From the NCBI GenBank assembly GCA_014382805.1, contig JACNIZ010000220.1, positions 1 through 47,055 of the forward strand: a stretch of 47,055 bases of DNA, read 5' to 3'. The first letter of the stretch is position 1. Each line of letters opens with the position of its first letter. The DNA comes from Planctomycetota bacterium (GTDB taxonomy: Bacteria; Planctomycetota; UBA1135). The notes below the pieces were generated by a model, which ran no database searches, was not told the DNA's origin, and saw only the letters and a program-made list of their open reading frames with translations. Below, in pieces: positions 1,084-45,919 of this stretch. Both the position numbers and the translations under genes were made by a program.

Positions 1084-1106
1084 CGACATAATGTGCCTTT
1101 GCGGTG
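1084..1106 (+). promoter_or_regulatory. Candidate ECF promoter motif upstream of ECF gene 1
   Basis: CGACATAATGTGCCTTTGCGGTG matches 15/23 ungapped with the equivalent region upstream of ECF gene 2 (4592-4614). Confidence 0.35.
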
Positions 1107-1118
1107 TCACTCTTATTA

Positions 1119-4100
1119 ATGGATCCAAATTCGTCAAACCATAAGCTAGAGCATACCCTCGAGCAATCGAGGTGGCTCAAAGCTTTGGCTGTACATTTGG
1201 TCGGTCCTGACAACGCCGAAGATTTACTGCAAGACGCCTGGGTGCGAGCACTGGAACGCCCCCCTCGACAGTCGAAAGTCCCGCCATCTTGGATGGCACG
1301 CGTGCTAACCAACCTCGGCTTGAATTCGAAACGAAAGGACCAGCGTCGGCGTCGGCGCGAAATCCTTGCGGCGCAGGAGCAGACGTCGGAAATGCTTGCC
1401 AGCGACGAGGCGGTTGAAGTTTTGCAAGTGCATGAGCAACTGGTGCATGCACTGCGCGATCTGCGTGAGCCTTATCGAACTGCAGTGATTTTGCGCTTCT
1501 ACGAAGGGCTGTCGAGCAAACAAATTGCCAAGCGTTTGCAGGTGCCCCCATCTACCGCCCGCAATCGATTGGCGAAAGGCTTGGCGGAATTGCGACGAAT
1601 CTTGGAATCCAGACACGGAGCAGATTGGCGCGATAGCACGCTAACTGCGCTTTTCTTAACCCCGGGCTCGCTAGTTCCGCCCTCTGTGGCGGCGATTGGA
1701 TTGGAGACTGTATTAATGACTATGAACAGCAAACTAATTGTCGGAGTTGGAGCGATTGCCTTAATCGTTGGTTTTTTCTTTTGGCCGGAAAATACTGGGA
1801 CTGAAACGGAAAATGCCGACGGAATTCAAGAGGCCGAACTTCTAAGCGAGATTCAAGCGGAAGTACAGCCGAGCGAGCTGGCCTTACTTGAAAAACAAGA
1901 GAGTGAAGTAGACATCCGCGCCGAGGCGGCTGCACCCAATTTTGGCGTGAAACTTCGAATCGTGGATGAAACTGGCACTGCAATTCCATCTGCCCGCATT
2001 CGCGTTTTTAAAACCAATAGAGGAGCGCGTTCTCTCTCAAGGAGGCCGATTGACATCTACTTCCCAAATATGGATCCCGATGTAATCGCAATCACCAATC
2101 AAGAGGGAATAGCGACTATAGGAGACCTTCCTCGTCGAACGGATCTAGCCTTCTTTGCCGACGCCAGCGGATTTGCAGGCCGAGTTCGTGTGGAAAATTT
2201 ATCAGCGGATCCCGCTGCAATTGACCTCGGAGATTGGATTCTCGAATCGGGGAGATTCTTAGCTCTTCAGTTCGTCGACAGCAAGGGTAATTCAATCCCA
2301 TCAGCGCGAGTCGAGTGCATAGGAAGAACCCCGCAACTGGAGTTCACCATGCTGAATTCGTTAGCATTTACCGATGAAAACGGCGTAGCTTTTTTTGAAA
2401 ACCTAAATAAGAGTGCCAACCTAATCCTAACTGACCCGGCGGGCTTTCTTAGTTACCAAGAAAGAGACTTCACCGTCTTTGACCAGCCAACGGCCTCACG
2501 GAGAATTGTACTTGAACGCGGTGGCTCCATTGAACTTACCGTGTATGAAGAAGATGGCTCCCCTGCCAAGGGCGTTGGAGTCTATAAAGAGGTCGGTGGT
2601 TTCCAAACGCCGTTAGTGCGCCTCCAGCCACACCTAACCTCTTTCCAAGGAGTCACTGCCGCAGATGGGAAGTTTTTGGTTAGCGGATTGGAAGAAGAGC
2701 GCGCCTCACATGGCATCGCAATCCGTCGCGGGCAAGCCTGGGCAGCTTCGGCCGGTATGAAGGCGGGAGAAAAGCTGAATTTGGTCGTACCTGGAGTTCA
2801 TGAAATAAACGGTCGAATTTTGCTCCGAAACAACACTCCGGCGGCCGGAGGAACGGTGATTTTAATAAACGAAAATGAACCCAGTTTGCCGCCAGATTTC
2901 GAATGCGAACTTGGTGACGATGGAAGTTTTTCGACCACACTTTCCACGGGGAGTTATCGCATTGCCAGCTTTCACAAATCCGGCACCTTGATGAAATCTA
3001 CCGGAGTATTACTTGAAGAAAATATTGACCTCGGTGACCTTCATTTGGCCGATCCGACCGCATTAGTGCTGCGCATTGAAAACGGAAGTGGCGAAGGATT
3101 ACCGGCCGCAAAGGTAAGTTTTCCGCTTCCACAATGGGCGACTACGCGACCGAATCCAGGGAATTCTAGCGACATCCAGGGAATGCTATTTTTTAGTTCA
3201 AATCCGTTGCTCAATAAAGCTGGCCTTGCATCAGGAGAGGTCGGGGTTTGGAATATCTCACATCTCCCGACTGGCTCATTCACCTTCCAAATAACTTGCC
3301 CCGGGTATCAAGCAAAGGATCTACAGGTCGAATTGGCTGCTGGGCAAACTGTACATGAGACTATTCAGCTCGAAGCTACAGCAGAGTTGATCCTCTCCGT
3401 CATGAATTCGGATGGGCGTCCGGCCTCTGGGGTTTCAGTTGCCGTTAGTCCAGCTGGGCATGATTCTCAATGGCAGGCGAATGGACTACAGAAGCCTAAG
3501 TACCTGCCCCAAAATTCGCAAACGGATAAGGATGGCAAAGCGCATTTCAAAAACATCGGCGTGGGTAGTTGGAACATAGGCCGATGGCTTCCTTCACGTT
3601 CAGGTTTCTTTTGGGGAACTACTTTGATAAATCCTGGCAGCAATCATTTCCAAATCCAAATGCCGGAATTGCATGGGGTGGAATTCAAAGTAGTTGGCCC
3701 GAATGGACCAGTGCCCGAAACTCCGGTTCGACTTCGGCGTAAACTGCCGAAAACCGACCCAATTTCCCCAATCACTGAATATGACCGCGGTGGATATCGT
3801 TCTACTACAGATCAGAATGGAATTTGTACCCATAAAGAGCTAGAAGCGGACGAATACCAAATACAAATTTTTCCACCTGGGTTGTTCCCGCTGCAAGAAG
3901 AAATTCAAATCAATGCATCCTCAACTAGTTTCACCTTTCGCTTTACAGGAACCTCAATCTCTGGAGCTATCGCCAATGCGCCGCAAGGTTCGCGGGTTTA
4001 CCTTGCCAACTTCTTGAATGAACCGGATGAGCAGGAGCAAGCTCTTCTTCTGGTTAGGAGTCAATACTGGGATTCCGATGCAGACGATATCATTGCTATT

Positions 4101-4574
4101 GGCAGCAACCTTCGTCATGGTATGACATCACCTGATTCGCAAGGGTTTTTTGAATTCAATGGAGTTCCCGATGGGATCTATTACCTAATTGCAAGAGCAC
4201 CTGGATACATTGCGGCCAATCCTCGGCGAATCCATGTCAAGGGCGAGGATCTATCAAATCAAAATTTCGTACTTGCACAAGCGGGAAGCGTCAGTGTGGA
4301 ACTGACTGGAATGACAGAGTTCCGTCGGCGTCATCCCGAGACACAACTCTATTTGGAGGTGTCCAGTTTGAGCGGCAAACGGGTGAGCTCGAACCCGCCG
4401 TTAATCACCCAAGACGGTAAGTATTCTTTCTCGCCGCTAGAATCGGGGGAAGCCATAGTTTCCATGCGCTATTGGAACAACGTCACTATGACCAAGGGCG
4501 AAACCATTCCAGTTGTGGTCATTCCCGGCCAAGCCAGCGTTGTGAGAGTAGACGCGAGAAATTTCTCGCCATAA
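1119..4574 (+). CDS. ECF sigma-70 factor fused to a TM helix and long extracytoplasmic CarboxypepD_reg/prealbumin-like repeats
   Basis: Region 2 (NAEDLLQDAWVRAL...SWMARVLTN), region 4 (ALRDLREPYRTAVILRFYEGLSSKQIAKRLQVPPSTARNRL), TM segment LIVGVGAIALIVGFFFW, and repeated 'TD..G.A.F..L..G' beta units. ATG 1119 is preferred over GTG 1104. Confidence 0.85.
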   Translation: MDPNSSNHKLEHTLEQSRWLKALAVHLVGPDNAEDLLQDAWVRALERPPRQSKVPPSWMARVLTNLGLNSKRKDQRRRRREILAAQEQTSEMLASDEAVEVLQVHEQLVHALRDLREPYRTAVILRFYEGLSSKQIAKRLQVPPSTARNRLAKGLAELRRILESRHGADWRDSTLTALFLTPGSLVPPSVAAIGLETVLMTMNSKLIVGVGAIALIVGFFFWPENTGTETENADGIQEAELLSEIQAEVQPSELALLEKQESEVDIRAEAAAPNFGVKLRIVDETGTAIPSARIRVFKTNRGARSLSRRPIDIYFPNMDPDVIAITNQEGIATIGDLPRRTDLAFFADASGFAGRVRVENLSADPAAIDLGDWILESGRFLALQFVDSKGNSIPSARVECIGRTPQLEFTMLNSLAFTDENGVAFFENLNKSANLILTDPAGFLSYQERDFTVFDQPTASRRIVLERGGSIELTVYEEDGSPAKGVGVYKEVGGFQTPLVRLQPHLTSFQGVTAADGKFLVSGLEEERASHGIAIRRGQAWAASAGMKAGEKLNLVVPGVHEINGRILLRNNTPAAGGTVILINENEPSLPPDFECELGDDGSFSTTLSTGSYRIASFHKSGTLMKSTGVLLEENIDLGDLHLADPTALVLRIENGSGEGLPAAKVSFPLPQWATTRPNPGNSSDIQGMLFFSSNPLLNKAGLASGEVGVWNISHLPTGSFTFQITCPGYQAKDLQVELAAGQTVHETIQLEATAELILSVMNSDGRPASGVSVAVSPAGHDSQWQANGLQKPKYLPQNSQTDKDGKAHFKNIGVGSWNIGRWLPSRSGFFWGTTLINPGSNHFQIQMPELHGVEFKVVGPNGPVPETPVRLRRKLPKTDPISPITEYDRGGYRSTTDQNGICTHKELEADEYQIQIFPPGLFPLQEEIQINASSTSFTFRFTGTSISGAIANAPQGSRVYLANFLNEPDEQEQALLLVRSQYWDSDADDIIAIGSNLRHGMTSPDSQGFFEFNGVPDGIYYLIARAPGYIAANPRRIHVKGEDLSNQNFVLAQAGSVSVELTGMTEFRRRHPETQLYLEVSSLSGKRVSSNPPLITQDGKYSFSPLESGEAIVSMRYWNNVTMTKGETIPVVVIPGQASVVRVDARNFSP

Positions 4575-4631: not shown

Positions 4632-7600
4632 ATGAAAACGCCTGACCCCAAGACCGCCAGCCTGGAAGAACTGCTCGCCCATTCCGGGTGGGTGCAAGCT
4701 CTTGCAAAATCGCTGCTGGCGGACGAGCATCAGGCGGAGGATGTATCGCAGCAGACCTTGATGGTGGCGCTGGAGCGTAAACCTTACGGCGGTGCTGGCC
4801 TGCAAGCTTGGTTGACTCGAGTTGCTCGCGGAATTGCACTTAATCTGCGACGCGGTGAGCGGCGGCGATTGGCGCGTGAGGAAAAGGTCGCTCAAACAGG
4901 CGCGACGGCTGCATCCAGCGATGAAATCGTCGCATGGGCGGAGTGCATGCATGAGTTGGCACTTGCAGTTTCATCACTGGACGAGCCGCATAGAAGCATC
5001 ATCGTGCAGCGCTACTTCGATGGCTTGCCTTTGCATGAAATCGCTTCGCGCCTGGGAATGCCCGCCAGCACGGTGCGCTCAAATTTGCGCCGCAGTTTGC
5101 AAAAGCTGAAGTTTGAATTGCAAGCTCGCTCCGGCAAAGAAAGCCACCTTGCAGGCTTAGCGATTTTGGCAGCACCCATATCTGGAACTACCGTACTCGC
5201 GAGTGCCGGCTCGATCTCATTTACCCCTTGGATCACACACCTTTTGCTCATGAGCACAAAAACCAAAATCGCATTCAGCGCAGCGCTGTTATTATTGATT
5301 TCTTGGGCGGTATGGCCGACGCCTCGACTTTCGCCGCCGACAATTCAGACTGTTGGAAATGCGGATCCAATAGCATCTACCTCAATCCTGAAAGAGAACG
5401 CAACCATACCTCAAGGCGAGGCGACTGACGAGAGCCTGAGGGTTGAGCTGCTCGAGGAATCGAATTCAATTGAGGCAGTGTTCCACGTTCAAGTCTTGGA
5501 TCTAAATGGACGCGCAATTCCTCAAGCCCATGTAGAAGCAAAGAACATACACCAGGATTGGATCAAGCTCATGGGCTTCAAGGGATGGGACGCTTGGTTT
5601 CACATTGCCCCCAGCAAAGAAAAAGCCCTGACTGATGAGTTCGGGCGTGCAACCCTAAATAATCTAAACAATTCAGATCCCGTCATTATTTACGCTTTCA
5701 AAAGTGGTTTTGCTATTGCAGGCAAGCTCCATGACAGCACGCCGGGCAAACCAGAGCAAGACTGCGGCATTCTTAGCCTGTCTCCAGGTGGACAGATAAA
5801 GCTTCGCGTATTGGACAATAAAAACAAGCCCGTGGAAGGTGCAGTCATCAGCCTTCAAACCGATCCCACGGAACCAGTAGGCACTCTTTATTTTCAAAGT
5901 GGACCAACCGACGACAAAGGAGAGAAATCTTTCCCTCACTTGCTGAATCGATTGCATCGCCTGGAGATCAACGCTCCTGGGTTCATTCCTTTCCAGCAGG
6001 ACGATTTCCAGCCCATTGCATCTAGCGATCAATGGAGGCAAATCACGCTTGAGCGTGGCAGTGCCATCAACGGAATAGTTTTCAACTCAAATCATTCCCC
6101 GGCAGCTGACGTCCCCATCTACTTACTTCGAAAAGAGGATTCCAGCTTTGACCGGCCACACCAATTTTATGGGCATTCGGCAGTAACCCAAACAGACGTT
6201 AATGGTGAATTTGAAATCTCTGGCCTCGATGATAAAGAGGCGGAATATAAAGCCCTAGCTAAAGTTAGCCCGACCATCTGGACAGCTTCAGATCCGGTCA
6301 GTCCAGGGGGTGTGGTGAAACTGTCCCTGCCAGACTACTATTCCATTCGCGGCAAGATTGTCATTGAAGACGGAAGCCCAGCCCAACGAGCATCTATCGG
6401 ATTTGTGAATGTGGATCACCCTGGCGATGTGAATGAAGTTTTTTATCCAACCTCTTCAAACGGATCCTTTCAATTAGCAATCGCCGCAGGCACATATGGC
6501 GCTATGGCTAGGAACCGAGAAGGCCGAAAACTACTTTCACCATTTGAAGTTTCCGCAGATGTTGATCTGGGCGAGATCACCATTTTTCCAGGAGTTCCCT
6601 TGACTATCACCACGTTATCTTCCATTGATAAAAAGCCAGTTCCGTTCCCAAGCCACATACTTGATGTTGAAGTTCCCTACTTTGGGAAGGGAATAGTCAT
6701 AGGGCCGAACGATTGGAAAAGGCAAATCAAGCACGCCGCTCGAGCAAGGCGCTTCAGCCGCGACCAATTCCTTGAGGACCATGTCGCAATTATCAAATAC
6801 CTTCCCCCGGGGAATCACGATTTATCCGCACACGCTACCGGATATCTCAGACAGCCATTTAAGGTGATCCTGGAGGAGGGTAAGCCAAAAGCGATCACGC
6901 TTTTCTTGGAACCGACATTAGAAGTAACTCTGATCATCAAGGACAAGAATGGGCTTCCAGTTCAAGACCAAGAGTTTCTAATGAACTCCTTCCGCCCGGA
7001 TGGCAAAGCCGACGAAGATCGAAACTCGGAAAGGTCCTCCACCAACGCAGCAGGAAAGGCCATCTTTAATCAGTTAAGCAAAGGATGGTATTACTTGTGC
7101 CAAGGAAGCGGTCCAACAGAAGTGCGAATGACTTCCCTTGAAATCGTCTCTGGAGAAAACATCATTGAGTATCAATACCCTACCCAGCCAAATTTAACGG
7201 TGCGACTTTCGGATGCTTCCGGTCCAATCACTGGCACGGAAATCCAAATACTGAAACAACTCGACGACAATTCCCCGTGGCCTAAGCGGGCGCAATTGGA
7301 TTCCAAAGGTGAAGCACATTTCTCCAATATTTGGCCTGGGAATTATCGAATAATGGCCGAAGTCCATGGCAGTCTGCGAGTATTCAAAGTAGTTGAGCTA
7401 AATAAAGAATCTGAAGTTGTCGAGCTACAACTAAGTGGGATCACCATAAAAGGAAAGATCCCTTCCGAAAACCTAACCCTGCTGGGAGGATTGCGGGTGA
7501 GCATCCATGGACATGGGTTGCCAATATCAAAAATAAAAGATGCCGACCTAGCTGTGCTTGGACAAACAAACTATAAATCGTCCCTACATGGAACGGCAAT

Positions 7601-8036
7601 GGTCGACGAAGACGGAAACTTTATCATCCAAAATGTACAACCAGGCCTCTACGAAATTTACATGGATGCCAAGGGCTACCGGAGCTCAGGGACAACCGAA
7701 ATAGAGGTTTATACCCAGGATCTCATCGCGCCAGATCTTTCACCATTAATTATGGAATCGGTGCTCATACTCCAGGTGATTGATTCCGCTGAATTCGTGG
7801 CGACCAATTCAGTACATCTATTCTATGGAAAACTGTTTAACGATGCTGGAGTGTTGGTAGCCAATACTAGCTTCAGCGATGACGGCGAGAAGAAATTCGA
7901 TCGTCTAAATCCAGGAAAATACGACCTAAAAATCTACTCCGTTATTCTGCGAGGGGGCAAGGAAACACTTGTCGATACTATTCCTGTTCAAGTCGGTGGA
8001 CCTAGCACAGTGACCACAACTCGATGGCCGTTGTAG
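4632..8036 (+). CDS. Second ECF sigma-70 factor-TM-CarboxypepD_reg-repeat fusion (tandem paralogue)
   Basis: QAEDVSQQTL (region 2), SLDEPHRSIIVQRYFDGLPLHEIASRLGMPASTVRSNLRR (region 4), TM segment IAFSAALLLLISWAVW, then repeated carboxypeptidase-regulatory-like units. Confidence 0.85.
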   Translation: MKTPDPKTASLEELLAHSGWVQALAKSLLADEHQAEDVSQQTLMVALERKPYGGAGLQAWLTRVARGIALNLRRGERRRLAREEKVAQTGATAASSDEIVAWAECMHELALAVSSLDEPHRSIIVQRYFDGLPLHEIASRLGMPASTVRSNLRRSLQKLKFELQARSGKESHLAGLAILAAPISGTTVLASAGSISFTPWITHLLLMSTKTKIAFSAALLLLISWAVWPTPRLSPPTIQTVGNADPIASTSILKENATIPQGEATDESLRVELLEESNSIEAVFHVQVLDLNGRAIPQAHVEAKNIHQDWIKLMGFKGWDAWFHIAPSKEKALTDEFGRATLNNLNNSDPVIIYAFKSGFAIAGKLHDSTPGKPEQDCGILSLSPGGQIKLRVLDNKNKPVEGAVISLQTDPTEPVGTLYFQSGPTDDKGEKSFPHLLNRLHRLEINAPGFIPFQQDDFQPIASSDQWRQITLERGSAINGIVFNSNHSPAADVPIYLLRKEDSSFDRPHQFYGHSAVTQTDVNGEFEISGLDDKEAEYKALAKVSPTIWTASDPVSPGGVVKLSLPDYYSIRGKIVIEDGSPAQRASIGFVNVDHPGDVNEVFYPTSSNGSFQLAIAAGTYGAMARNREGRKLLSPFEVSADVDLGEITIFPGVPLTITTLSSIDKKPVPFPSHILDVEVPYFGKGIVIGPNDWKRQIKHAARARRFSRDQFLEDHVAIIKYLPPGNHDLSAHATGYLRQPFKVILEEGKPKAITLFLEPTLEVTLIIKDKNGLPVQDQEFLMNSFRPDGKADEDRNSERSSTNAAGKAIFNQLSKGWYYLCQGSGPTEVRMTSLEIVSGENIIEYQYPTQPNLTVRLSDASGPITGTEIQILKQLDDNSPWPKRAQLDSKGEAHFSNIWPGNYRIMAEVHGSLRVFKVVELNKESEVVELQLSGITIKGKIPSENLTLLGGLRVSIHGHGLPISKIKDADLAVLGQTNYKSSLHGTAMVDEDGNFIIQNVQPGLYEIYMDAKGYRSSGTTEIEVYTQDLIAPDLSPLIMESVLILQVIDSAEFVATNSVHLFYGKLFNDAGVLVANTSFSDDGEKKFDRLNPGKYDLKIYSVILRGGKETLVDTIPVQVGGPSTVTTTRWPL

Positions 8037-8990: not shown

Positions 8991-9959
8991 CTACCAACCC
9001 ATCACCAAGGCGAAAAACAACGGCGCAACGATGGTCGCGTCAGATTCAATGATGTGCTTCGGTGTATTCACCCCCAGTTTGCCCCAAGTGATTTTTTCGT
9101 TGGGAACCGCACCTGAATAACTGCCAAAGCTGGTAGTTGAATCGCTAATTTGGCAAAAATATCCCCACAAAGGAACATGATCTCGCTGCAAATCCTGATG
9201 CAGCATCGGCACCACACAAATGGGGAAATCACCGGCTATGCCACCGCCAATCTGAAAAAATCCGACCGAACTCTGCGGTGCATAATTGCTATACCACTCC
9301 GCCAAATCCATCATCGCTTCAATGCCGCTTTTCACCGTCGACGGCTGGGCCAGTCCCTCCATGCAAGCCGCCGCAAACATATTCCCCGAAGTCGAATCTT
9401 CCCATCCGGGTGTCCAAATCGGCAGGTTTTTTTCCGCAGCAGCCAATAGCCACGAATCCTCTTCGGGGATTTGGTAGTACTGCTTCAATTTACCACTTAA
9501 CAGCATTCGATAGAGAAACTGGTGCGGGAACAAGCGCTCGCCGGCATCTTCCGCAGCCTTCCACTCCTCCCTTAAGGCACGTTCAATGCGTCGCATCGCC
9601 TCCTCTTCGGGGATGCAGGTGTCAGTCACTCGGTTCAAATGCTTGTCGAGCAATTCTTGCTCCTGCTGCGCAGTCAAATCACGATATCCGGGAATGCGCA
9701 AGTAATGGTCATGAGCAACCAAATGAAACACGTCTTCTTCCAGATTTGCTCCGGTAGTGCTGATAGCATGCACCTTGCCTGCCCGGATCATTTCGGCAAG
9801 AGAACGGCCCAATTCGGCGGTACTCATAGCGCCAGCCAGGGTCACCAGCATCGATCCGCCCGAATCCAAGTGCCGACGGTAATCCCGCGCCGCATCCATC
9901 AACGCTGCGGCATTGAAGTGGCGGAAATGCCGGGTCAAAAAGGCGGTAATTTCACTCAT
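8991..9959 (-). CDS. speY: Deoxyhypusine synthase-like protein (SpeY-type, homospermidine pathway)
   Basis: TLAGAMSTAELG, STTGANLEED, IGGGIAGDF, and SYSGAVPNEKITWGK with the active-site Lys; divergent from speA-speB. Confidence 0.85.
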   Translation of the reverse strand: MSEITAFLTRHFRHFNAAALMDAARDYRRHLDSGGSMLVTLAGAMSTAELGRSLAEMIRAGKVHAISTTGANLEEDVFHLVAHDHYLRIPGYRDLTAQQEQELLDKHLNRVTDTCIPEEEAMRRIERALREEWKAAEDAGERLFPHQFLYRMLLSGKLKQYYQIPEEDSWLLAAAEKNLPIWTPGWEDSTSGNMFAAACMEGLAQPSTVKSGIEAMMDLAEWYSNYAPQSSVGFFQIGGGIAGDFPICVVPMLHQDLQRDHVPLWGYFCQISDSTTSFGSYSGAVPNEKITWGKLGVNTPKHIIESDATIVAPLFFALVMGW

Positions 9960-10019
9960 GGCTAAATTCTAGGTCTTCCCACCGGTGGGCAAAAGAGCGA
10001 CAATGGCGCCTCAAGCTCG

Positions 10020-11999
10020 ATGGATACCCCCACCACCCTAACCACCCCGAATCAATCCACGCCGACCTCCGGCTGGACGATTCAAATGGCCGATGATTTG
10101 TACCGCGTCTCCGGCTGGAGCGAGGGTTATTTTTTCGTCGCCGAGGACGGCCGAGTGAAGGTGCGGCGCCATGCATCCGACCCCAATGGCGTCGCGCTGG
10201 ATGAAATTCGAGAAGGCTTGCGCCAGCGAGGCTTTTGCACGCCTCTAGTGGTACGCTTCAATGACATCCTGCGCGACCGCCTCGATCAAATTGCCGACGC
10301 CTTTAGTCGCGCCATGGAGGAGGAACAATACCGTGGGGATTATCGGCTCGCCTTCCCGATTAAAGTCAACCAGCAACGCCACGTCGTCGAAGAAATTTAT
10401 CGTCACGGCGAGCGCCATGGCTTTGGCTTGGAGGTTGGCTCAAAGCCGGAGCTCTTTGCCGCGCTGCCGTTGACCGCCGGCGACTTCGAGCGTCCTATCA
10501 TTTGCAATGGTTTCAAAGATGATCGCTACATAGAAGCGGTCATTCTTGGCACCAAACTTGGCCGCAACATTATTCCTGTAATCGAAGATTATTCTGAACT
10601 GGAACGAATCCTTCGTTTTGCCAAGAAGCACGATGTGCGACCACATATAGGTGCTCGTGTCAAACTTTCCACCCCTGGCGTCGGCAGATGGGAGGCCTCT
10701 TCGGGTTCACAGGGCAAATTTGGATTGTATATCAGTGAGCTTTTGGCCATGCACCAAGAGCTACGCGAGCATGGCATGGAAGATTGCCTAGAGCTGCTGC
10801 ACTGTCACGTCGGCAGCCAAATTCACGACATTCGTGTCGTCAAAAATATGATTAACGAGCTGGGCCAAATTTATGTTGAGCTCCAGCGCATGGGTGCCGG
10901 TTTGCGTTATTTGGACGTTGGTGGCGGCTTAGGTGTAGATTACGACGGCAGTCAGCGGGCAGTGGAATCTTCGGTGAATTATTCGCTTCAAGAGTATGCC
11001 AACGACCTGGTAGCGCGCGTCGGCAATTTGTGCAACCAAGCAGGCATCGAACATCCAACCCTAATTACCGAAAGTGGGCGCGCGATGTCCGCTCACCATA
11101 GTGTATTGATCACAGATGTGCTCGGTTCTAGCAGCAGTGAACGCATCAATTGCTTGGATATTTCCCTAGAAGAATGGCCAAATGAGGAAGATGCGCCACA
11201 GCCGATTCTTGATTTGCACCAAGCCTGGTCAACTTTGGATGCGGCGAACTATTCAGAAAATTATCATGACGCACAACAGGCGCGTGATGACTCGATCAAT
11301 CTGTTCGCCCTGGGCTACATTTCATTGCCCGCTCGTGCATTGGTGGAACGCATGTATTGGTCCACTTGTTCCAAGGTGCGCGGCTTTGCGCGCATTCTTG
11401 ACGAAGACCACGAAGACTTAGAATTCTTGGAAGATGCCCTACGTGCAACCTACTTCACGAACTTTTCTCTATTCCAATCTTTGCCCGATTCATGGGCGAT
11501 CGAGCAACTCTTTCCAGTGATGCCCCTGACCCGATTGACCGAGGAGCCGACGCGGCGTGCGGTTTTGGCCGATATCACCTGCGACTCCGATGGGAAAATT
11601 GAGAATTTCATCGGCGAATCCGAGAATCGCCAAACTCTGAACTTGCATGAACTGGTACCAGGTGAATCCTATTTTTTAGGAGTGTTTTTGGTCGGGGCTT
11701 ACCAAGAAACACTTGGCGATTTACATAATCTGTTTGGTGATACGCACGTCGTTCATATTAACTTGGAGGACGATGACGGTTGGTCGGTTGAAGAAACTGT
11801 AGAAGGAGATACGGTTCGCGAAGTTCTGTCCTACGTTCAATACGATGTGGAAGACATGGTGCGTGATTTTCGCAAGGACTGCGAAAAAGCGGTACGCGCT
11901 GGCCGTTTGAACATTACCGAAGCGCGCAACCTATTGCGCTTTTATGATCAGGGATTGGCGGGTTACACTTACCTTGAGTCAGATAATTTAGACGATTAA
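10020..11999 (+). CDS. speA: Biosynthetic arginine decarboxylase
   Basis: FPIKVNQ (PLP Lys), GLEVGSKPEL, HCHVGSQI, DVGGGLGVDYDG, TCDSDG, GAYQE; 659 aa. Confidence 0.95.
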   Translation: MDTPTTLTTPNQSTPTSGWTIQMADDLYRVSGWSEGYFFVAEDGRVKVRRHASDPNGVALDEIREGLRQRGFCTPLVVRFNDILRDRLDQIADAFSRAMEEEQYRGDYRLAFPIKVNQQRHVVEEIYRHGERHGFGLEVGSKPELFAALPLTAGDFERPIICNGFKDDRYIEAVILGTKLGRNIIPVIEDYSELERILRFAKKHDVRPHIGARVKLSTPGVGRWEASSGSQGKFGLYISELLAMHQELREHGMEDCLELLHCHVGSQIHDIRVVKNMINELGQIYVELQRMGAGLRYLDVGGGLGVDYDGSQRAVESSVNYSLQEYANDLVARVGNLCNQAGIEHPTLITESGRAMSAHHSVLITDVLGSSSSERINCLDISLEEWPNEEDAPQPILDLHQAWSTLDAANYSENYHDAQQARDDSINLFALGYISLPARALVERMYWSTCSKVRGFARILDEDHEDLEFLEDALRATYFTNFSLFQSLPDSWAIEQLFPVMPLTRLTEEPTRRAVLADITCDSDGKIENFIGESENRQTLNLHELVPGESYFLGVFLVGAYQETLGDLHNLFGDTHVVHINLEDDDGWSVEETVEGDTVREVLSYVQYDVEDMVRDFRKDCEKAVRAGRLNITEARNLLRFYDQGLAGYTYLESDNLDD

Positions 12000-12003
12000 G
12001 CAC

Positions 12004-12912
12004 GTGAACCATAAAATTTCCGACGGTTCCCGCACGCCGTATAGCGGTCGATTTTTGGATTTACCAGACCATCTTGCCGATCCCAAAACGGCACGCTTTG
12101 TCGTCATCCCGGTCCCCTATGACGGCACTTCCACCTGGCGCAAAGGCGCGGATCGAGGCCCCGAAGCTTTGTTGCAGGCATCTGCGGCGGTCGAATGGTA
12201 TGACATTGAAACCAAGCTGGAAGCGGCGCAAGTCGGAATCATGAGCGAAAATGCGCTTGCGGTAGATGGCTTAGATCCTCAATCCATGTGCGAGCTCGTG
12301 CAAGCTCGGACTAGCCATCATTTACAGAAAAATCGCATCCCAGTTATTTTGGGTGGTGAGCATTCCGTAAGCATCGGTGCGATTCGAGCGGCGGCTATAG
12401 CCAGTCCCGATCGTTTGGGTGTATTACAGTTCGACGCCCACGCCGACACTAGACCTGATTACCGCGGCTCGCCATACAACCACGCTTGTGTCATGGCCCG
12501 CGCTCGCGAAGTGGCGGATGTGGTGCAAGTCGGCATTCGATCCATAGAACAGCACGAGCTTAAAGGTTTAGATTTGCAGCGAGTATTCTGGGCCCATGAA
12601 ATCATGCAGGGTCAAGATCGTAAATGGATGGACCACGCAGTCGAGTTGCTGCCACAAAATGTTTACATTACGGTCGACTTGGATGGTTTTGATCCGTCGC
12701 TAATGCCGGCAACTGGCACTCCAGAACCTGGCGGTTTGGATTGGTACACGGTGAACGAATTAATCCGCCGAGTCCTTGCCAGCGGACGCCGCCTAGTAGC
12801 CTTCGACGTCAACGAATTGCTGCCCATCGATGGTCAGCATGCAAGTGATTTTCTTGCAGCAAAATTGGTGCATCGCATCATGTGCATGCAGGTTTCCGCA
12901 AGTGGCGGCTGA
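12004..12912 (+). CDS. speB: Agmatinase / ureohydrolase
   Basis: GGEHS, FDAHAD, DLDGFDP and TGTPEPGG Mn-ureohydrolase motifs; 4 bp after speA. Confidence 0.92.
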   Translation: MNHKISDGSRTPYSGRFLDLPDHLADPKTARFVVIPVPYDGTSTWRKGADRGPEALLQASAAVEWYDIETKLEAAQVGIMSENALAVDGLDPQSMCELVQARTSHHLQKNRIPVILGGEHSVSIGAIRAAAIASPDRLGVLQFDAHADTRPDYRGSPYNHACVMARAREVADVVQVGIRSIEQHELKGLDLQRVFWAHEIMQGQDRKWMDHAVELLPQNVYITVDLDGFDPSLMPATGTPEPGGLDWYTVNELIRRVLASGRRLVAFDVNELLPIDGQHASDFLAAKLVHRIMCMQVSASGG

Positions 12913-13598: not shown

Positions 13599-14219
13599 AT
13601 GAAGTCCCCCGTCAGCAAATTGCTCCTTATCATTGTTATTCTAGTCTTGCTGCAAATATGGACCGGCTACAAGAGATCGAGAAATGAGGCGGCGGAGACA
13701 GCGTTTGCTGAATTGAACCAAATGCTTCGGGCAGGGCCAATTGGGGAACTCAGCCTAGCCAATAATCCTGAGTCCTCAGGCGACTTATCCGGTCCAGATG
13801 AAACAGCTCATATCCGAACCTTGCTTAATAGCAAAAGCCACTGGAATTATTTAGAAGATCTCGCCGCCGTACATGACCAGTTTGTATTTGATCCACGTCG
13901 GCGTAGCGTTTACTTTTTGCACCCGCGCGCAGCCAATCCTAAAGAATCGTGCCTAGGCCGGGTAACGATTACTGAAAATGGGAGTGGAAGTCATGCTGGC
14001 CACGCCGGAATGCCGCCCTATTTATTGTTGGAAACCCTGAAATGGGACCAAAATGCGTTACGAATTGAGGGCAGTATACTCAACAGCATTAACTGGCAGC
14101 CAAACTTAAATGGGACAGAGGTCGTTGCTGGCCAGCAGGTAGCGTTTCGGGTAGACGTCGATCGATTCGAGGACCGGACCATCGGCTTCGTGGAGCTCGG
14201 AGCGCCTTTAATCGAGTAG
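13599..14219 (+). CDS. Hypothetical membrane-anchored protein
   Basis: 206 aa ORF with N-terminal TM segment (LLLIIVILVLLQIW); fills the gap and overlaps the nod-like 3' end by 12 bp. Confidence 0.65.
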   Translation: MKSPVSKLLLIIVILVLLQIWTGYKRSRNEAAETAFAELNQMLRAGPIGELSLANNPESSGDLSGPDETAHIRTLLNSKSHWNYLEDLAAVHDQFVFDPRRRSVYFLHPRAANPKESCLGRVTITENGSGSHAGHAGMPPYLLLETLKWDQNALRIEGSILNSINWQPNLNGTEVVAGQQVAFRVDVDRFEDRTIGFVELGAPLIE

Positions 14220-16586
14220 TTTGCCAGACGATTCGGAAGCGTCCGGGGTCATCGCTAATACCGTCGGCGGGGCGACGAATGGAACTGTTGCGGCTTGAGC
14301 ATTTTTTAATCGGAAGCCGCGTGTGACCATGAACCAAATTAGCGGAATGACACCGCCGCAGACGAACCATGCAACGCCGACTCCGCGTAACCAAGTAAGG
14401 GTTTGGAAAACGCTGCCGCTTTGATAATCCTGCGAACGGGCGTAAGCGTAGCCAACTTGCATCGAAGCGAGCAATTGATGCAGACCAACCGGGAAGAGGT
14501 CGAGTACTACCATCAGAACGAGTCCTAGGTTTAACGACCAAAAAACACGCCGCAGCAATTTTGCGTTCCAACTTTGCGGCCCGATGACCCAACGTCCGCA
14601 AAACAACATGGAAGCAATGGCTAAATTTCCATAAACGCCGAACAGCGCCGCATGACCATGATTGACGGTTAAGTAAGTGCCGTGTTGGAAATAATTGACT
14701 ATGGGCAAATTGATCATAAAACCCATCACCCCGGCGCCCATGAAGTTCCAGAAGTTGACGCCAATAAGGAATAAAAATGGCTCCGCCAAACCGAAGGTGG
14801 CCTGCTCCCCGCCACTTTTCCGCAACGCACTCACTGCGCCGCCGGGCATGTTGCGGAAACGCCAAGCTTCCACCGTCAGCAAAACCAACGGCACGATTTG
14901 CAGCGACGACAATACGCCGCCCAACGCAACTGTTTCAATGGATTTGGCGTTCCAATAAAAATTGTGGCTGATGCCGATCAAACCGGAGCCAAGGAACAAT
15001 ACCGCTGACAAATAAACCACGCGGGCGGCAACCATGTGGCTTACGAATCCCATCAAATACAAAAAATAGGCGGCAATGATAGTAGTGAACAGTTCAAAAA
15101 ATGCTTCCACCCACATATGGATAGTGCACCAGCGCCAGAAGTCGGCGATGACAAAATTCGTGTCGGGGTTGGCAACAAAACTGGCGGTGAACATAAAGAT
15201 AATGCCGACTATGGAATACACCATCCAGTTTGGTAAGGACCACGATTGCTTTTTCCGCAGCAGCGGCCAAACCCCGCGTGCGGTAATCCACAGCCAAACC
15301 ACAAACGCGGCATAAAGCAAATAATGGAAGACTCGACCGAACTGGGCGAATTCCCAACCTTGCAAACCAAACCAGCGCCAGTATTCTCCGAGCAAACCGT
15401 GCACACCCAAAGGAATGCCGAAAAAAGTGCCAGCGGCGACGACGACCAGCATCCAAAACAAAACGTTAATCCAAGCTAATTGGCGTTTGGGTTCAGGGCG
15501 GCAGATCAGGGGTAATACCCAAATGGTGGCGGCGATCCAACACACTGCGATCCAGAGTATTGAAATTTGGGAGTGCCAAGCGCGACTGATGGTCAGCGGC
15601 AGCACCTCTGAAATATCCAAACCCATTGCGCCGAAAATTCCGACGAAATCGCCGATGGTAATCAAGCCAGCTAGGACTTGCACACCGAACAGCACGGCGG
15701 CGACGGCGAAAAATTTATAACAAGCGCGCTGGGTTGGCGTGGGCTCGAATTTTTCGACCAGCTTAGTCGTCGCCAGCGGAGGCGTTTTCGTTTGCTGCGC
15801 TTCGAAAATGGCCTCACGATCCATCTTGCCGTAAAAGTAGAGCACGATCCCAAGCGAAAGCACTAAAGCAAGTGCGCCAATCACGCTCCAAAACACGACT
15901 CCCGACGTGGCGGTATTACCCGCTAATGGGTCATGCGGCCAGTTATGAGTGAAACTGTAGTCGTAGCCGGGACGTTGCGCAGCGCACAACCAACCACCCC
16001 AGAAAAAAAATGCACTGAGGTCGGATATTTCGTTTTCATCGGTGATGTAATTTTTTGTGGCGAATACTTCGTCGCCCGCAAGTTCGCCACCAGCACCAAA
16101 TTTCTGCGCATAATAATTACGCAACTGAGTGTAAGCCGCCGCTTGAGCATTGCTCAAGGTCACCGTGTTGGTGGCTTCGTTGTAGCGATTCTCCTTGAGC
16201 TCGGCTTGCACCAACGCCTGCACTATCATGCTGCGCTCGGAATCATCCGGCACTTTGTTACGCCAACCGGCGTCGTAAGTCTGATTCATCCACTGGGCAG
16301 TCAAATTGAGCGATTCAGCGGTGAAATCTGGGCCGCGCATGCCGCCGTCGCCGAGAAAACTGCCGTACTCCATCAAGCCATAGCGGAAGAACACTTGTTG
16401 GCCATCCGTGATGGACTTGGCTTCAAAAACCACTTCGCCAGACTCAGTTTTAAAGTCCGCAAGCGGCGGCGCATATTGATAAGTCTTAAAGCCGATGTAC
16501 CCCACCACCGCCACGCTGACCGCAACGATGATGACGAATACTTTCCACCAATGCTGGCGCCTATCGATCCATTTGATGATATTCAT
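14208..16586 (-). CDS. nod: qNOR-family heme-copper protein with nitric oxide dismutase (Nod)-type active-site substitutions
   Basis: qNOR architecture, 792 aa. GSFLGDGGMRGPDFTAE; HMWVEAFFE (H490); GISHNFYWNAK (H541-N542 instead of HH); SLQIVPL (Q563 instead of E); LITIGDF instead of the quinol-binding AHY; WLRGVGV instead of WLRxPGD; heme ligands WHSQ and HGHAALFGVYGNL retained. Confidence 0.8.
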   Translation of the reverse strand: MNIIKWIDRRQHWWKVFVIIVAVSVAVVGYIGFKTYQYAPPLADFKTESGEVVFEAKSITDGQQVFFRYGLMEYGSFLGDGGMRGPDFTAESLNLTAQWMNQTYDAGWRNKVPDDSERSMIVQALVQAELKENRYNEATNTVTLSNAQAAAYTQLRNYYAQKFGAGGELAGDEVFATKNYITDENEISDLSAFFFWGGWLCAAQRPGYDYSFTHNWPHDPLAGNTATSGVVFWSVIGALALVLSLGIVLYFYGKMDREAIFEAQQTKTPPLATTKLVEKFEPTPTQRACYKFFAVAAVLFGVQVLAGLITIGDFVGIFGAMGLDISEVLPLTISRAWHSQISILWIAVCWIAATIWVLPLICRPEPKRQLAWINVLFWMLVVVAAGTFFGIPLGVHGLLGEYWRWFGLQGWEFAQFGRVFHYLLYAAFVVWLWITARGVWPLLRKKQSWSLPNWMVYSIVGIIFMFTASFVANPDTNFVIADFWRWCTIHMWVEAFFELFTTIIAAYFLYLMGFVSHMVAARVVYLSAVLFLGSGLIGISHNFYWNAKSIETVALGGVLSSLQIVPLVLLTVEAWRFRNMPGGAVSALRKSGGEQATFGLAEPFLFLIGVNFWNFMGAGVMGFMINLPIVNYFQHGTYLTVNHGHAALFGVYGNLAIASMLFCGRWVIGPQSWNAKLLRRVFWSLNLGLVLMVVLDLFPVGLHQLLASMQVGYAYARSQDYQSGSVFQTLTWLRGVGVAWFVCGGVIPLIWFMVTRGFRLKNAQAATVPFVAPPTVLAMTPDASESSGKLLD

Positions 16587-16643
16587 TGGATTGACCTAAG
16601 GAAACTCTAGTTCATTCGGGTGGTGGCGCCGAGTTGAGTCGCG

Positions 16644-16665
16644 GTCATCTTTACACAAAAGATGA
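16644..16665. promoter_or_regulatory. Candidate operator upstream of the nod-like gene (GT-N7-AC box overlapping an 8-bp inverted repeat)
   Basis: GTCATCTTTAC at 16644-16654; TCATCTTT-acaca-AAAGATGA at 16645-16665. Confidence 0.4.
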
Positions 16666-16720
16666 ATGAGGCCAAGAAAAATCAACGCCAGCACCTGCAA
16701 TTTTCAACTTAAATTGCGGC

Positions 16721-18769
16721 TTACAAACGACCTTGCGCGGCCAAAATCGGCCTCAGTCCCTCCATCAGCAAGTCAAGTTCTTGGTCGCGTAAGGCTTGCT
16801 CCTTATCACACAAAGCTTCCTCCGGGCGCGGGTGACATTCGACGATGATGCCGTCGGCGCCGGCTGCTACTGCGGCTAGGGCTAAAGGAACCACTAAATG
16901 GCGTTGACCGGCTGCATGCGACGGGTCGACAATGATGGGTAAATCCGTCATAGTTTTGAGCACCGGAACTGCACTGATATCCAGGGTATTGCGGGTTGCT
17001 GTTTCGAAGGTGCGGATGCCGCGTTCACACAAAATCACGCGTTGATTTCCACCAGCTTTGATGTATTCCGCCGCCTGCAAAAGCTCCTTTAACGTCGCAC
17101 TCATGCCCCGCTTCAGCAGCACCGGCCGACGTATTTTGCCGAGCTGCTTCAGCAATGAAAAGTTCTGCATATTGCGTGCGCCTACCTGCAGCATATCCGC
17201 TTTTGCGGCGATGGCTTCGACGTCTTCTGGTTGCAGCACCTCGGTTACCACGGGCATTTCGAACTCACGACCTGCTTCGACCAGCAGATCCAAACCTTCA
17301 AAACCTAACCCTTGGAAAGAGTGCGGCGAACTGCGCGGCTTGAATGCACCGCCGCGCATAATTTGGGCACCACGAGCTTTGACCATCGCCGCAGTATCGC
17401 GAATTTGTTTGCGGCTCTCCACCGCGCACGGCCCCAAAATCAAGGTGAAATTGCCGCCACCTACCGCCACCCCACCGACCGAAATACTCGGCCGTGGCTT
17501 GGCTTTGACATGGCGCGCTATTGTCACCTTCGCTGGCGTTTCCACCTTTGCCTTCCACAAAGTCGATGGAATTTTGCTTGGCTCCAAACGGTGCTCGACA
17601 GCACGCGACGGATAAGTACCTAAGACCTGTACATGGTTGCACGAACTGCGTAATGCGGCCAGCGCCTCTTGCACGTTTTCATCCTCCTGGTGACCAGCTA
17701 GGTCGGCCAGGAACATGTACTCCCACGGCGTCTCCGGCTGCGGACGACTTTCTAGGCGAACTAAGTTTACGCCGTGATCAGAAAACGCCGCCAAACTATT
17801 GCTCAATGCACCACAACGGTCTTCAACCGCAAAGTGAATGGTAGTTTTAGACGGCATCTTTCGGCTTGCATTCTCCGGTTTGGTCGCCAGTAACAAGAAC
17901 CGTGTTTGGTTGTGAGCATGATCGGCTACATCGCGTCGCAACACGTTGAGGCCGAATCGTTCGGCCGCCTCACTGGAGCAAATGCAGCCGATCTTTGGAT
18001 CTTTTGCATCACGCACTGACTGAGCAGCGCCTGCAGTATCAAAGTAGTGCGCAGCCTTGGCCTGCCGAATGTCACCGAGCAAGCGCTGGCACTGCTGCAA
18101 GGCAACCGCATGACTGCGAATAATCCGCAAGTCGGCAACTTCCGCCCCGGGTAACGCGGCCAAACAATGTTCGACTTCCCATACCTCTTCGTCCACCACC
18201 GCAATGTCGCGCGTGGCCAGCAGGTGATTGACCTCGCTGATGCTGCCAATCAAAGTATTTTCCACCGGCAAAAGCCCATAATCAATTTCGCCGCGTTCCA
18301 GCGCTGTGAACACATCGGCAAAACTGGATAAGCCGACGTGTTCCGCAATCGAATGAGTGCGGTGGGCGAACAATTTTTCAATCGCGAGGTCGCTGTAACT
18401 GGTTGCCACGCCTTGATAGCCGACGCGGCAAGTGGTGGTCTTTGGTTTTTCGGATAGCAGCGGTTCTTGGCTACGACGCGAGTAATTCAGCACCTCGCGC
18501 AGGATGCGGCCAGTGAAATAGCTCGACAAGCCCAAATTCTGTGATTCTTCCGCCCATTCGTTGGCCACTTCAGCCTCTCGATCGGGATCAAACAGTTGGG
18601 CCTCGTCCTGGTTGGATTTGTGCTGGGCAATGTCATGCACAGCATCCATGCGTTGCCGTAGCAGACGGATGAGTTCCTTGTCGACCAAATCAATGCGCTG
18701 GCGCGGACTGTCGGCGTCGGGATTATTCTGCTGACCTGGATTGTCAGGGTTGGGTAGGAGCGGTTCCAT
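16721..18769 (-). CDS. pheA: Chorismate mutase-prephenate dehydratase-ACT-DAHP synthase (type Ibeta) fusion
   Basis: AroQ CM ([23 protein letters not shown]), PDT ([21 protein letters not shown]), ACT (NLVRLESRP), DAHPS ([38 protein letters not shown]). Confidence 0.92.
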
Positions 18770-31289: not shown

Positions 31290-31298
31290 GTGCACATC

Positions 31299-32293
31299 AT
31301 GACTGAAACTCTTACTTACAAGAAAAAGGACTTTTCCTCCGATCAGGAAGTGCGCTGGTGCCCTGGCTGTGGCGATTACGCGATTCTGAATGGCGTGCAA
31401 CAAGCCTTTGCTTCGTTTGGTGTGCCGAAAGAAAAATTCGCGGTGGTTTCGGGCATTGGCTGCTCAAGCCGCTTCCCGTATTACATGAGTACTTTTGGTT
31501 TTCACAGCATTCACGGCCGTGCGCCGGCGTTTGCAACTGGCATCAAGATTGCAAATCCTGATTTACATGTTTGGGTAGTCACCGGCGACGGCGACGCGAT
31601 GTCGATCGGTGGCAATCATTTGATTCACGCGATGCGGCGCAACCTGAACCTAAAGATAATGCTGTTCAACAACCGCATTTATGGATTGACCAAAGGGCAG
31701 TATTCACCAACGACGGTGCCCGGGTTGAAAACGCCCTCGTCGCCTTACGGCGCGCTGGATACTCCGGTTAGTCCGATGGCTTAGCCCTGGGCGCTGGCGC
31801 TAGTTTTGTTGCCAGAACGGTGGACACTCAAGTCCCGCACCTGAAGGGAATCTTGCAAGCGGCACATGAACATAAAGGTTTTGCCTTCATTGAGATTTTG
31901 CAAAACTGCGTGATCTTTAATGACGGTGCTTTTGATCACGTCGCTGGCCGCGAAGTTCGCGACGACCGCCAAGTCGACTTACGTCCTGGGCAGCCACTGG
32001 TTTTTGGCAAAGAAAATCAAAACGGTTTGCGCTTCACGCCGGACTCCATCGAACTGTGCCCGCCTGAGGAAGCCACGATTTGGAAAGCCGACGGCGCAAC
32101 TGGTGCCAACGCTTATCGCATTTGCCAAGGCGCTGAAGATGACAAGATTCCGGTTCCCATCGGAATTTTCCGCCGGGTCGAACGACCGATGTTGGATGAA
32201 TCCATTCACAATCAGGTCAAAGCCGTTACCCAGGACTTGGGTGAAGGAACCTTGGAATCACTACTGCAAAGTGGTGATACTTGGAAGGTCTAG
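31299..32293 (+). pseudogene. korB: 2-oxoacid:ferredoxin oxidoreductase beta subunit, split by a 1-nt deletion (possibly a sequencing error)
   Basis: WCPGCG, SGIGCSS, HGRA and GDGD (TPP) motifs. At 31781-31782, ATGGCTTAGCC lacks one base; restoring it gives PMALALGAGASFVARTVD continuing into the 31820-32293 frame. Confidence 0.85.
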
Positions 32294-43002: not shown

Positions 43003-43030
43003 AACTGTTACTTTTCAAACAACTTCATGG

Positions 43031-43047
43031 GTTGTCAATTTTACAAC
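43031..43047. promoter_or_regulatory. NorR binding site
   Basis: GTTGT-CAATTTT-ACAAC (GT-N7-AC core at 43034-43044). A degenerate copy, GTTAC-N7-ACAAC, lies at 43007-43023. Confidence 0.75.
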
Positions 43048-43127
43048 TTTTTATCGTTGAAATTGGCTTAAATAAGGCATTTCGCGAATTATTTTTTTCT
43101 TTTGAGGATTAATCCACCATTTACAGT

Positions 43128-43143
43128 TGGCACGGAGATTGCA
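43128..43143 (+). promoter_or_regulatory. Sigma54 -24/-12 promoter of the nor operon
   Basis: TGGCACG-GAGA-TTGCA, a perfect consensus match, 23 nt upstream of the first gene and divergent from norR. Confidence 0.92.
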
Positions 43144-43166
43144 TTATTCGAATAACAAAAGCCACC

Positions 43167-43712: not shown

Positions 43713-43713
43713 C

Positions 43714-44448: not shown

Positions 44449-44450
44449 GG

Positions 44451-45860: not shown

Positions 45861-45919
45861 CCCTTGTTACTGAAGACGGATTGCCGTTGTCACTTCGGCA
45901 ATCCGTCACCCCCATTCCG

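Follow-up and report, generated by a model that had tools for sequence, protein, structure and literature searches.

A NOD-like protein of qNOR descent in a planctomycete: predicted metal and quinol sites, clade membership and candidate reactions

A contig of 47,055 nucleotides from a Planctomycetota genome of the UBA1135 lineage (GenBank assembly GCA_014382805.1, contig JACNIZ010000220.1), here called the window, carries a complete gene for a 792-residue protein (14208-16586, minus strand) that very probably belongs to the nitric oxide dismutase (NOD) family in its broad sense, a branch of the haem-copper oxidases (HCOs) derived from the nitric oxide reductases that depend on quinol (qNORs), and within that family to a subclade, A1, drawn mainly from Planctomycetota and Verrucomicrobiota. 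Four features place it there: Asn in place of a His at the non-haem metal (FeB) site, Gln in place of the active-site Glu, replacement of the quinol-binding residues with the haem b and haem b3 ligands kept, and a tree position among proteins with the same substitutions. The full canonical qNOR set of six His, the active-site Glu and the quinol residues His328, Glu332 and Asp746 is not found. An earlier reading of the DNA, the original prediction, had proposed a putative oxygenic NOD standing alone among glycan-degradation and housekeeping genes; the residues that it listed hold throughout, and the protein groups outside the clade that carries the NC10-type motif.

Fold, metal centre and former quinol site

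The gene is defined by an intact, full-length open reading frame (ORF) with an ATG start, by Pfam matches, by its match to the solved qNOR of G. stearothermophilus (3AYF) and by an AlphaFold2 model; because homologues span residues 1-792 at 79-99% identity, the ATG start appears to be correct. Residues 45-218 (15933-16454, minus strand, as for all features of this gene) form a periplasmic cytochrome-c-like domain lacking a CXXCH haem motif (PF22085 NorB_cytochrome_c-like, 164.7 bits), and residues 289-738 (14373-15722) form the HCO subunit I core (PF00115 COX1, 147.5 bits, with the same range in the genome search). An NCBIfam search of the protein gave no family match. With HMMER the top match among solved structures is 3AYF (E 4e-148); qNORs of Alcaligenes and Neisseria come next, and the NorB subunit of the cytochrome c-dependent reductases (cNORs) is far behind. 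The model, built from a 38-sequence alignment, has a mean predicted local distance difference score (pLDDT) of 85.4, a predicted template modelling score (pTM) of 0.87 and 14 long helices; Foldseek again returned 3AYF first (TM 0.87/0.91), the next nine hits being further Alcaligenes and Neisseria qNOR entries, and no dismutase-named entry stood among the structures that it listed. The model thus shows a predicted single-subunit qNOR-type fold of 14 helices with an N-terminal haem-less cytochrome-c-like domain, as in the G. stearothermophilus (3AYF/3AYG), Alcaligenes and Neisseria qNORs.

Against this conserved scaffold, the protein carries the equivalents of H560N, E581Q, H328G, E332G and D746V of the G. 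stearothermophilus enzyme. In the HMMER alignment to 3AYF, H559/H560 pair with H541/N542, so that the second metal His is retained (CAC, 14964-14966) and the third is Asn (AAT, 14961-14963), in the motif GISHNFYW beginning at residue 538; the HN pair that the original prediction saw at 14961-14966 in place of the FeB His pair is thereby borne out. E581, the proton-relay Glu close to the metal site, pairs with Q563 (CAA, 14898-14900; LQIVPL, residue 562), as had also been read. The other features of the centre are kept: HMWVEAFFE (15093-15119), of the form HxWVExxxE, supplies H490, the first metal His, E494, the Glu ligand, and E498, a second Glu; H643 and H645 of NHGHAALFG (14652-14660) are the haem b3 and haem b ligands; and H338 (15573-15575) is the other haem b ligand, all in columns invariant across the 38-sequence alignment. 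Five of the six conserved qNOR His (a haem b pair, a haem b3 ligand and three at FeB) are therefore present, with N542 at the position of the third FeB His. Read from the alignment, the non-haem metal site is His2-Asn-Glu rather than His3-Glu, and ligands for low-spin haem b and for haem b3 are present.

The former quinol site has changed as well. In the transmembrane helix where G. stearothermophilus has H328 and E332, the protein has G312 (GGC, 15651-15653) and G316, the stretch being 15639-15653 (ITIGDF, residue 309), and V738 (14373-14375; WLRGVGV, residue 732) stands where D746 binds quinol. The replaced quinol-site His and the lost quinol-site Asp of the original prediction both check out by alignment and codons, and by the same alignment none of the three quinol-binding residues is present.

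These states are a family property. The combination of H541, N542 and Q563 (H-N-Q) recurs in 315 of 315 collected relatives of the NOD-like type in a 333-row alignment of everything gathered with the query protein, with the cluster representative P0122 and from a genome scan; because the rows were gathered by similarity to the query, the count shows conservation and not frequency. The canonical HH-E state occurs in 17/17 canonical qNOR representatives and in the cNorB encoded in the same window (44451-45860), as the original prediction had noted for the latter. The concern that sequencing errors might underlie the critical codons can be set aside: over 14898-14966, contigs of runs X5 and X6, which belong to two other studies, show the same sequence. 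The X5 contigs show zero differences over 14208-15233, and the X6 contigs show seven (4 synonymous, 3 nonsynonymous), all outside 14898-14966. Metagenomes of several studies, marine and seawater, contain the gene in near-identical form. A canonical quinol-dependent reductase with sequencing or assembly errors at the odd residues, or a decaying pseudogene, has family membership in its favour and nothing further; the intact frame, the identical states in every relative, the same codons in contigs of the two other studies and a confident, qNOR-like model make it exceedingly improbable. The error reading, in particular, is refuted by the 315 H-N-Q relatives together with the unchanged codons in the contigs of other studies. 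One run (X16), filed as metatranscriptomic and flagged as probably DNA, holds four identical pieces on the gene and was not counted as expression; no RNA dataset with the gene was listed among the metagenome-run matches. Stretches of the gene that runs X9 and X16 leave uncovered carry no meaning. The GC content of the gene (0.52) equals that of its flanks, which is uninformative on horizontal transfer.

Clade membership and published relatives

In a library of representatives clustered at 50% identity, the nearest cluster, P0121, is 52% identical to the query, P0122 is 41% identical and canonical qNORs are at most 38% identical. With the window's cNorB as root, FastTree joins the H-N-Q proteins of the 333-row set (785 columns) in one clade (support 0.987) comprising lineage A (198 rows, support 1.0), which consists of A1 (150 rows, including the query) and A2 (48 rows, including P0121), and lineage B (117 rows, support 1.0), which has a long stem and includes P0122. 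A second phylogeny, an IQ-TREE quick tree of 64 rows under LG+C20 with posterior mean site frequencies (PMSF), gives values in the Shimodaira-Hasegawa-like approximate likelihood ratio test (SH-aLRT) of 100 for each of the H-N-Q clade, B and A1, and of 98 for A1+A2, and here the combined group (A1, A2 and B) nests among qNOR rows. A 32-row LG+G4 tree gives A1+A2 an SH-aLRT of 96, and an approximately unbiased (AU) test on the same rows and model rejects A1+B as one clade (p 0.011), that grouping having been named after the tree was seen.

Taxon labels come from a scan of genome contigs, of which the best 80 of 560 matches, all at least 50% identical, were considered. Clade A1 comprises Planctomycetota (Planctomycetales, Pirellulales and Scalindua/Brocadiia) and Verrucomicrobiota, with single metagenome-assembled genomes (MAGs) labelled Anaerolineales, Gammaproteobacteria and Bacteriovoracaceae. 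Clade A2 is made up of Bacteroidota (Saprospiraceae among them), Acidobacteria and a number of Planctomycetota and Proteobacteria. Clade B, in which the former quinol site reads A[T/M]DFVRP, matches an H328T/E332R pattern reported for NC10 and aquifer Nod clusters (Schmitz et al.), and JGI gives the name 'nitric oxide dismutase' to two of its proteins; its members are 38-44% identical to the query. The homologue searches, the genome-contig scan and the cluster look-up returned no M. oxyfera or HdN1 protein under those names, and none of the alignment rows fits the numbering of M. oxyfera residues used by Ruff et al. Clade B is thus labelled by its H328T/E332R motif, the two JGI names and approximately 40% identity, and its equation with Nod in the strict sense stays an inference because the set holds no named M. 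oxyfera or HdN1 protein. The phylogeny that the original prediction called for therefore went partly its way: the H-N-Q proteins form a clade apart from the canonical qNOR rows, and the query, in A1 with A2 as its kin, falls outside the clade with the NC10/aquifer-type motif. By alignment and tree, it would then not count as a Nod in the strict sense, to the extent that B, so labelled, stands for that group.

Comparison of the clades at 111 positions whose conservation among the 17 canonical qNOR representatives is 80% or more shows how much has been kept and how much remodelled. All three clades retain 82 of these positions, and the number changed to another conserved residue is 14 in B, 10 in A1 and 6 in A2. 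A1 and B have seven changed positions in common, and at six of these the new residue is the same (N214H, Y413F, L428F, H542N, G547A and E563Q); this near-identity of the common changes argues for one shared, non-qNOR chemistry. The strings GDG.xRGPDFTA, HNFYW.AK and GV[Y/K]GN are common to A1, A2 and B and are not found in qNOR; two extra motifs that the original prediction had called Nod-like, GDGGMRGPDFTA (residue 79, within the cytochrome-c-like domain) and VYGNLA (residue 651), are accordingly real clade markers.

At the quinol site the three clades part company. The Asp746 equivalent is present in 16/16 qNOR rows and in none of the A1 (0/15), A2 (0/14) or B (0/18) rows. His328 is present in 15/16 qNOR rows and 10/14 A2 rows, and is absent from A1 (0/15; Gly, Ser, Ala and others) and from B (0/18; Thr, Met, Ile, Leu and others). 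Residue 332 is acidic in 13/16 qNOR rows, Gly, Asn or Ser in A1, Gly, Arg, Asn or Asp in A2, and mostly Arg in B. The site thus appears to have been dismantled differently in each clade, and the tree suggests an old, common origin for the catalytic-site change and the Asp746 loss, with His328 disappearing later and more than once.

The substitutions are those of the signature that was proposed for Nod (FeB His to Asn, Glu to Gln, quinol site replaced) from the physiology and expression of M. oxyfera (Ettwig et al. 2012, PMC3413370), all of which the query carries. The M. oxyfera proteins DAMO_2434 and DAMO_2437 and the HdN1 Nod are described there with the same qNOR scaffold, the same two substitutions, quinol-site loss and haem ligands kept, and the clade taken to hold them shares the six derived residues with the query's clade; the differences are a separate, strongly supported clade at 38-44% identity and quinol-site replacements that read G...G...V in the query and T/M...R...G in the M. 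oxyfera/HdN1-type clade. As the original prediction pointed out, the signature also occurs in a related clade of uncertain function: the H-N-Q proteins of A2 correspond to the Bacteroidota and Acidobacteriota 'unknown Nor-related' or NOD subclades of the Muricauda ruestringensis type (Zhu 2017 as cited in PMC10286720; Ruff et al. 2024, PMC11549561). These are the nearest sister group, at 50-55% identity, sharing HNFYWNAK, Q563 and GVYGN with A1 and differing from it in the frequent retention of His328 and, in many rows, of Phe336.

The literature already knows the query's own clade as 'Planctomycetia-type Nod', which is among four NOD subclades, and Planctomycetota nod or qnorB-like genes were reported in 2017, 2023, 2024 and 2025. 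NOD is treated as a qNOR-derived family by Murali (2024), and four NOD subclades in 16 phyla are recognised in work that calls the enzyme uncharacterised (Ruff et al. 2024, PMC11549561). Genes of the qnorB-like type with a NOD active site were found to dominate an oxygen-deficient zone (Fuchsman et al. 2017, PMC5723336); nod genes were reported in Scalindua, Scalinduaceae and UBA1135 MAGs (Zhang 2023, PMC10359470; Jiang 2025, PMC11828985); and the Planctomycetia-type Nod was so named as a group approximately 40% identical to the Alpha-type, with no conserved neighbourhood, whose transcripts rise below the oxycline and which is transcribed in anoxic water (Elbon et al., bioRxiv 10.1101/2023.11.21.568154). 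This type, OTU I of Fuchsman et al. 2017, matches the query in taxa (Planctomycetota, Scalindua and Verrucomicrobiota among the nearest homologues), in identity to the proteobacterial Nod-type (approximately 40%, with 38-44% for the query) and in having no conserved functional neighbourhood, the link having been drawn from these descriptions rather than by alignment. The query is thus no new kind of protein; it is a clean, full-length and well-conserved representative of the least-studied subclade.

Candidate reactions and the genome around the gene

For the reaction itself, NO dismutation (2 NO -> N2 + O2) is put forward from the alignments as the single most likely candidate, at a strength short of even odds. 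NO would bind at the haem b3/metal centre, where quinol electrons would be inaccessible, and electron-neutral dismutation would follow. The NO would be supplied from outside, by neighbouring denitrifiers or by chemistry, because no nitrite reductase was found in the genome; the protein would serve to remove NO, and the cbb3 oxidase of the genome would use up the O2 immediately. Because the active-site remodelling is the same (HNFYW.AK, Q563, H214, F428 and GDG.xRGPDFTA), the same chemistry as in the NC10-type proteins would be expected, and the shared pocket together with the apparent loss of every known electron and proton-relay feature speaks for a non-reductase chemistry in common with NC10 Nod. 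Both an aa3-type oxidase and a fused cbb3 CcoNO, present in the genome, could consume the O2. NO-stress genes beside the relatives' copies also count on this side: an Rrf2/NsrR-like regulator lies upstream in 21/80 related loci (3 of A1 type, 18 of A2 type), a ScdA/RIC protein is present in 6/80 and a Crp/Fnr regulator in 8/80. None of these three lies in the window.

The genome assembly (4.17 Mb, 402 contigs) is 84.6% complete, a limit that applies to every absence from it. The searches for nirS or nirK and for O2-dependent oxygenases that the original prediction had proposed came back empty: nirS was not found, nirK gave only a 19-bit match, and neither ammonia/particulate methane monooxygenase (AMO/pMMO, whose control also gave no match anywhere) nor a ring-hydroxylating dioxygenase was found; NrfA and cytochrome bd were likewise not found. 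Present are NarG and a clade II Sec-type NosZ, both above cut-off (for NarG the equivalog cut-off), NapA-like and ArrA-like molybdoenzymes and one FA_desaturase-family gene. A search of 400 further genomes from the phylum turned up 12 with a gene 63-71% identical to the query, its H-N-Q state being assumed from this identity band; none of three same-family genomes holds it, and the only same-order matches are two of qNOR type at 36%. Among the 12 carriers, nirS occurs in 1 and nirK in none (23 and 13 of 401 genomes phylum-wide), so that 1 of 13 holders, the source genome included, has a nitrite reductase; NosZ occurs in 2/12, a canonical-band qNOR in 5/12 and a cNorB-like gene, by the query used, in 0/12. 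Separately, genomes of family f56, which also have nirS (E about 1e-120), each hold two NOD-like or qNOR-like genes, approximately 53% and 47% identical to the query.

The window itself holds a second NO system, separately regulated and 28 kb from the NOD-like gene (41416-46705). It comprises an activator with GAF, sigma-54-interaction and helix-turn-helix domains (NorR-like; 41416-43002, minus strand) and, divergent from it, a perfect sigma-54 promoter, TGGCACGGAGATTGC (43128-43142), followed by hemerythrin, a NorC-like cytochrome c, cNorB and NorQ. The cNOR and NosZ already give the genome an NO -> N2O -> N2 route, and a combination of cNOR, NosZ and NarG alongside the NOD-like gene is a feature of the source genome not described for Planctomycetia-type Nod in the accessible text of those reports. 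A consensus scan detected no sigma-54 promoter before the NOD-like gene, and no regulatory link to the NorR regulon was found.

Several observations weigh against dismutation. The nitrite -> NO -> O2 route of the M. oxyfera style is incomplete in the genome because nirS and nirK were not found here and are nearly absent from the carriers; and neither pMMO/AMO, with its silent control, nor a ring-hydroxylating dioxygenase was found, in contrast with the pMMO or alkane oxygenase context and Nir of M. oxyfera and HdN1. The protein lies outside clade B, with A1+B rejected as one clade, and clade B is itself recognised by motif, JGI names and identity with no named M. oxyfera or HdN1 sequence in the set. 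The electron-transfer haem b keeps both of its His ligands, which fits an enzyme still receiving electrons, and close homologues occur in MAGs named Scalindua and Scalinduaceae, which are O2-sensitive anammox bacteria. The caution in the original prediction that dismutation had not been demonstrated with purified enzyme is one still stated in June 2026 (PMC13386854); literature searches turned up no purified or heterologously expressed NOD, and the passages available describe NOD of any clade as neither purified nor assayed (PMC13386854, PMC11549561). N2O profiles have also been used to argue for NO reductase activity of such genes (Fuchsman et al. 2017, PMC5723336).

That last view corresponds to a serious alternative, slightly less likely than dismutation: an NO reductase (2 NO + 2 e- + 2 H+ -> N2O + H2O) serving NO detoxification, whose electrons would come not from quinol at the classical site but, for example, from quinol at another site or from a soluble or membrane redox partner feeding haem b. 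The nesting within qNOR and the 82 of 111 retained positions, among them the haem b His pair, the haem b3 His, two metal His, E494 and E498, are what such an enzyme would be expected to show, and the His328 of 10/14 A2 rows suggests that part of the old site lingers in the lineage. In 7/12 carriers neither a canonical qNOR (34-37% band) nor a cNorB-like gene was found with the queries used, and there the A1-type protein would be the sole NOR-family enzyme. Detoxification by reduction would suit the NsrR-like, RIC and Crp/Fnr neighbours, the scarcity of Nir among holders, the occurrence in anammox MAGs and a clade II NosZ that could take the N2O, and qnorB-like genes are the only NOR-type genes reported at the N2O maximum of the oxygen-deficient zone (Fuchsman et al. 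2017, PMC5723336). Set against these points, every member has lost both the third metal His and the Glu that Ettwig et al. (2012, PMC3413370) call implicated in catalysis, and the quinol Asp746 is present in 0/47 rows of A1, A2 and B. The periplasmic domain has no haem-c motif, no conserved redox-partner gene was seen beside A1 genes in the related loci examined, and the genome already has a cNOR under NorR/sigma-54 control. In the qNOR literature the third metal His, the catalytic Glu and the quinol Asp are tied to NO reduction.

A further alternative, which we regard as unlikely, is another NO-linked reaction or role at the His2-Asn-Glu/haem centre, such as disproportionation to N2O + O2, NO binding or sensing, or a different small-molecule reaction. 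The remodelled pocket (N542, A547, K548, Q563 and C487) has no characterised precedent, and the coexistence with a separately regulated cNOR is compatible with a distinct function. NO -> N2O + O2 has been described in organisms without nod, and the four NOD subclades, 40-50% similar, may differ biochemically (Ruff et al. 2024, PMC11549561). Positive evidence for such a role is none, and the NO-stress neighbours of the relatives point to NO itself as the ligand. Sequence cannot decide the chemistry of the protein.

If dismutation is nevertheless taken as the reaction, it is enticing to speculate, at a level we consider rather improbable, that a Nir-lacking, glycan-degrading marine planctomycete dismutates NO released by neighbouring denitrifiers or anammox bacteria through a quinol-independent NOD, achieving detoxification without reductant and 'dark' O2 for its cbb3 oxidase in anoxic water, with the cNOR (NorR/sigma-54) and NosZ as the classical route. 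The A1 clade, mainly Planctomycetota and Verrucomicrobiota and also Scalindua MAGs, would then supply O2 by cross-feeding in oxygen-deficient seawater. The question whether O2 is made from NO by NOD-type proteins is 15 years old and matters for nitrogen loss from the sea, N2O emission and 'dark oxygen'. The present comparison sharpens it, setting a remodelling common to three clades beside quinol residues replaced clade by clade and a Nir in only 1 of 13 holders, and the NOD-like gene and classical cNOR in one genome offer a natural internal comparison for expression and biochemistry.

Neighbouring genes and other features

The NOD-like gene stands alone, as the original prediction had it, among a chorismate mutase-prephenate dehydratase-ACT-DAHP synthase fusion gene, glycoside hydrolases of families GH2 and GH20, polyamine genes and two ORFs without a Pfam match. 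A spacer of 134 bp (16587-16720, minus strand), studied by reading the sequence and by pattern scans, separates its start from the fusion gene directly upstream on the same strand, a 682-residue ORF (16721-18769); no sigma-70-like or terminator-like sites were called in it, the scans being no richer than those of shuffled sequence. The polyamine cluster (8991-12912) places a deoxyhypusine-synthase-like gene beside an arginine decarboxylase and a gene of the agmatinase/arginase family. In five Bacteroidota loci (e.g. 5216-7126 of L048), a protein of the animal-haem-peroxidase family with a Por secretion tail is encoded just downstream of the A2-type gene.

Elsewhere in the genome, a fourth, divergent HCO subunit I (467 residues, COX1 82 bits, without an NCBIfam match) is encoded beside a dihaem cytochrome c (contig C293, L005, 596-2769, minus strand); it may be a further type of NOR or an oxidase. 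A formate dehydrogenase alpha gene (contig C386, L089, 640-3363) is open only with one in-frame TGA read through and scores 804 bits to TIGR01591 with TGA taken as U; its product is likely a selenoprotein. Within the window, a 625-residue ORF for an oxoacid:ferredoxin oxidoreductase alpha/gamma part is followed (31290-32293) by a thiamine pyrophosphate-binding beta part of 164 residues and then by a 157-residue ORF without a Pfam match, and these last two may be a split or frameshifted beta subunit. Finally, two adjacent genes (1104-4574 and 4632-8036) encode proteins of approximately 1150 residues in which N-terminal extracytoplasmic function (ECF) sigma-70 regions 2 and 4 are followed by many CarboxypepD_reg/Ig-like repeats, an unusual fusion.

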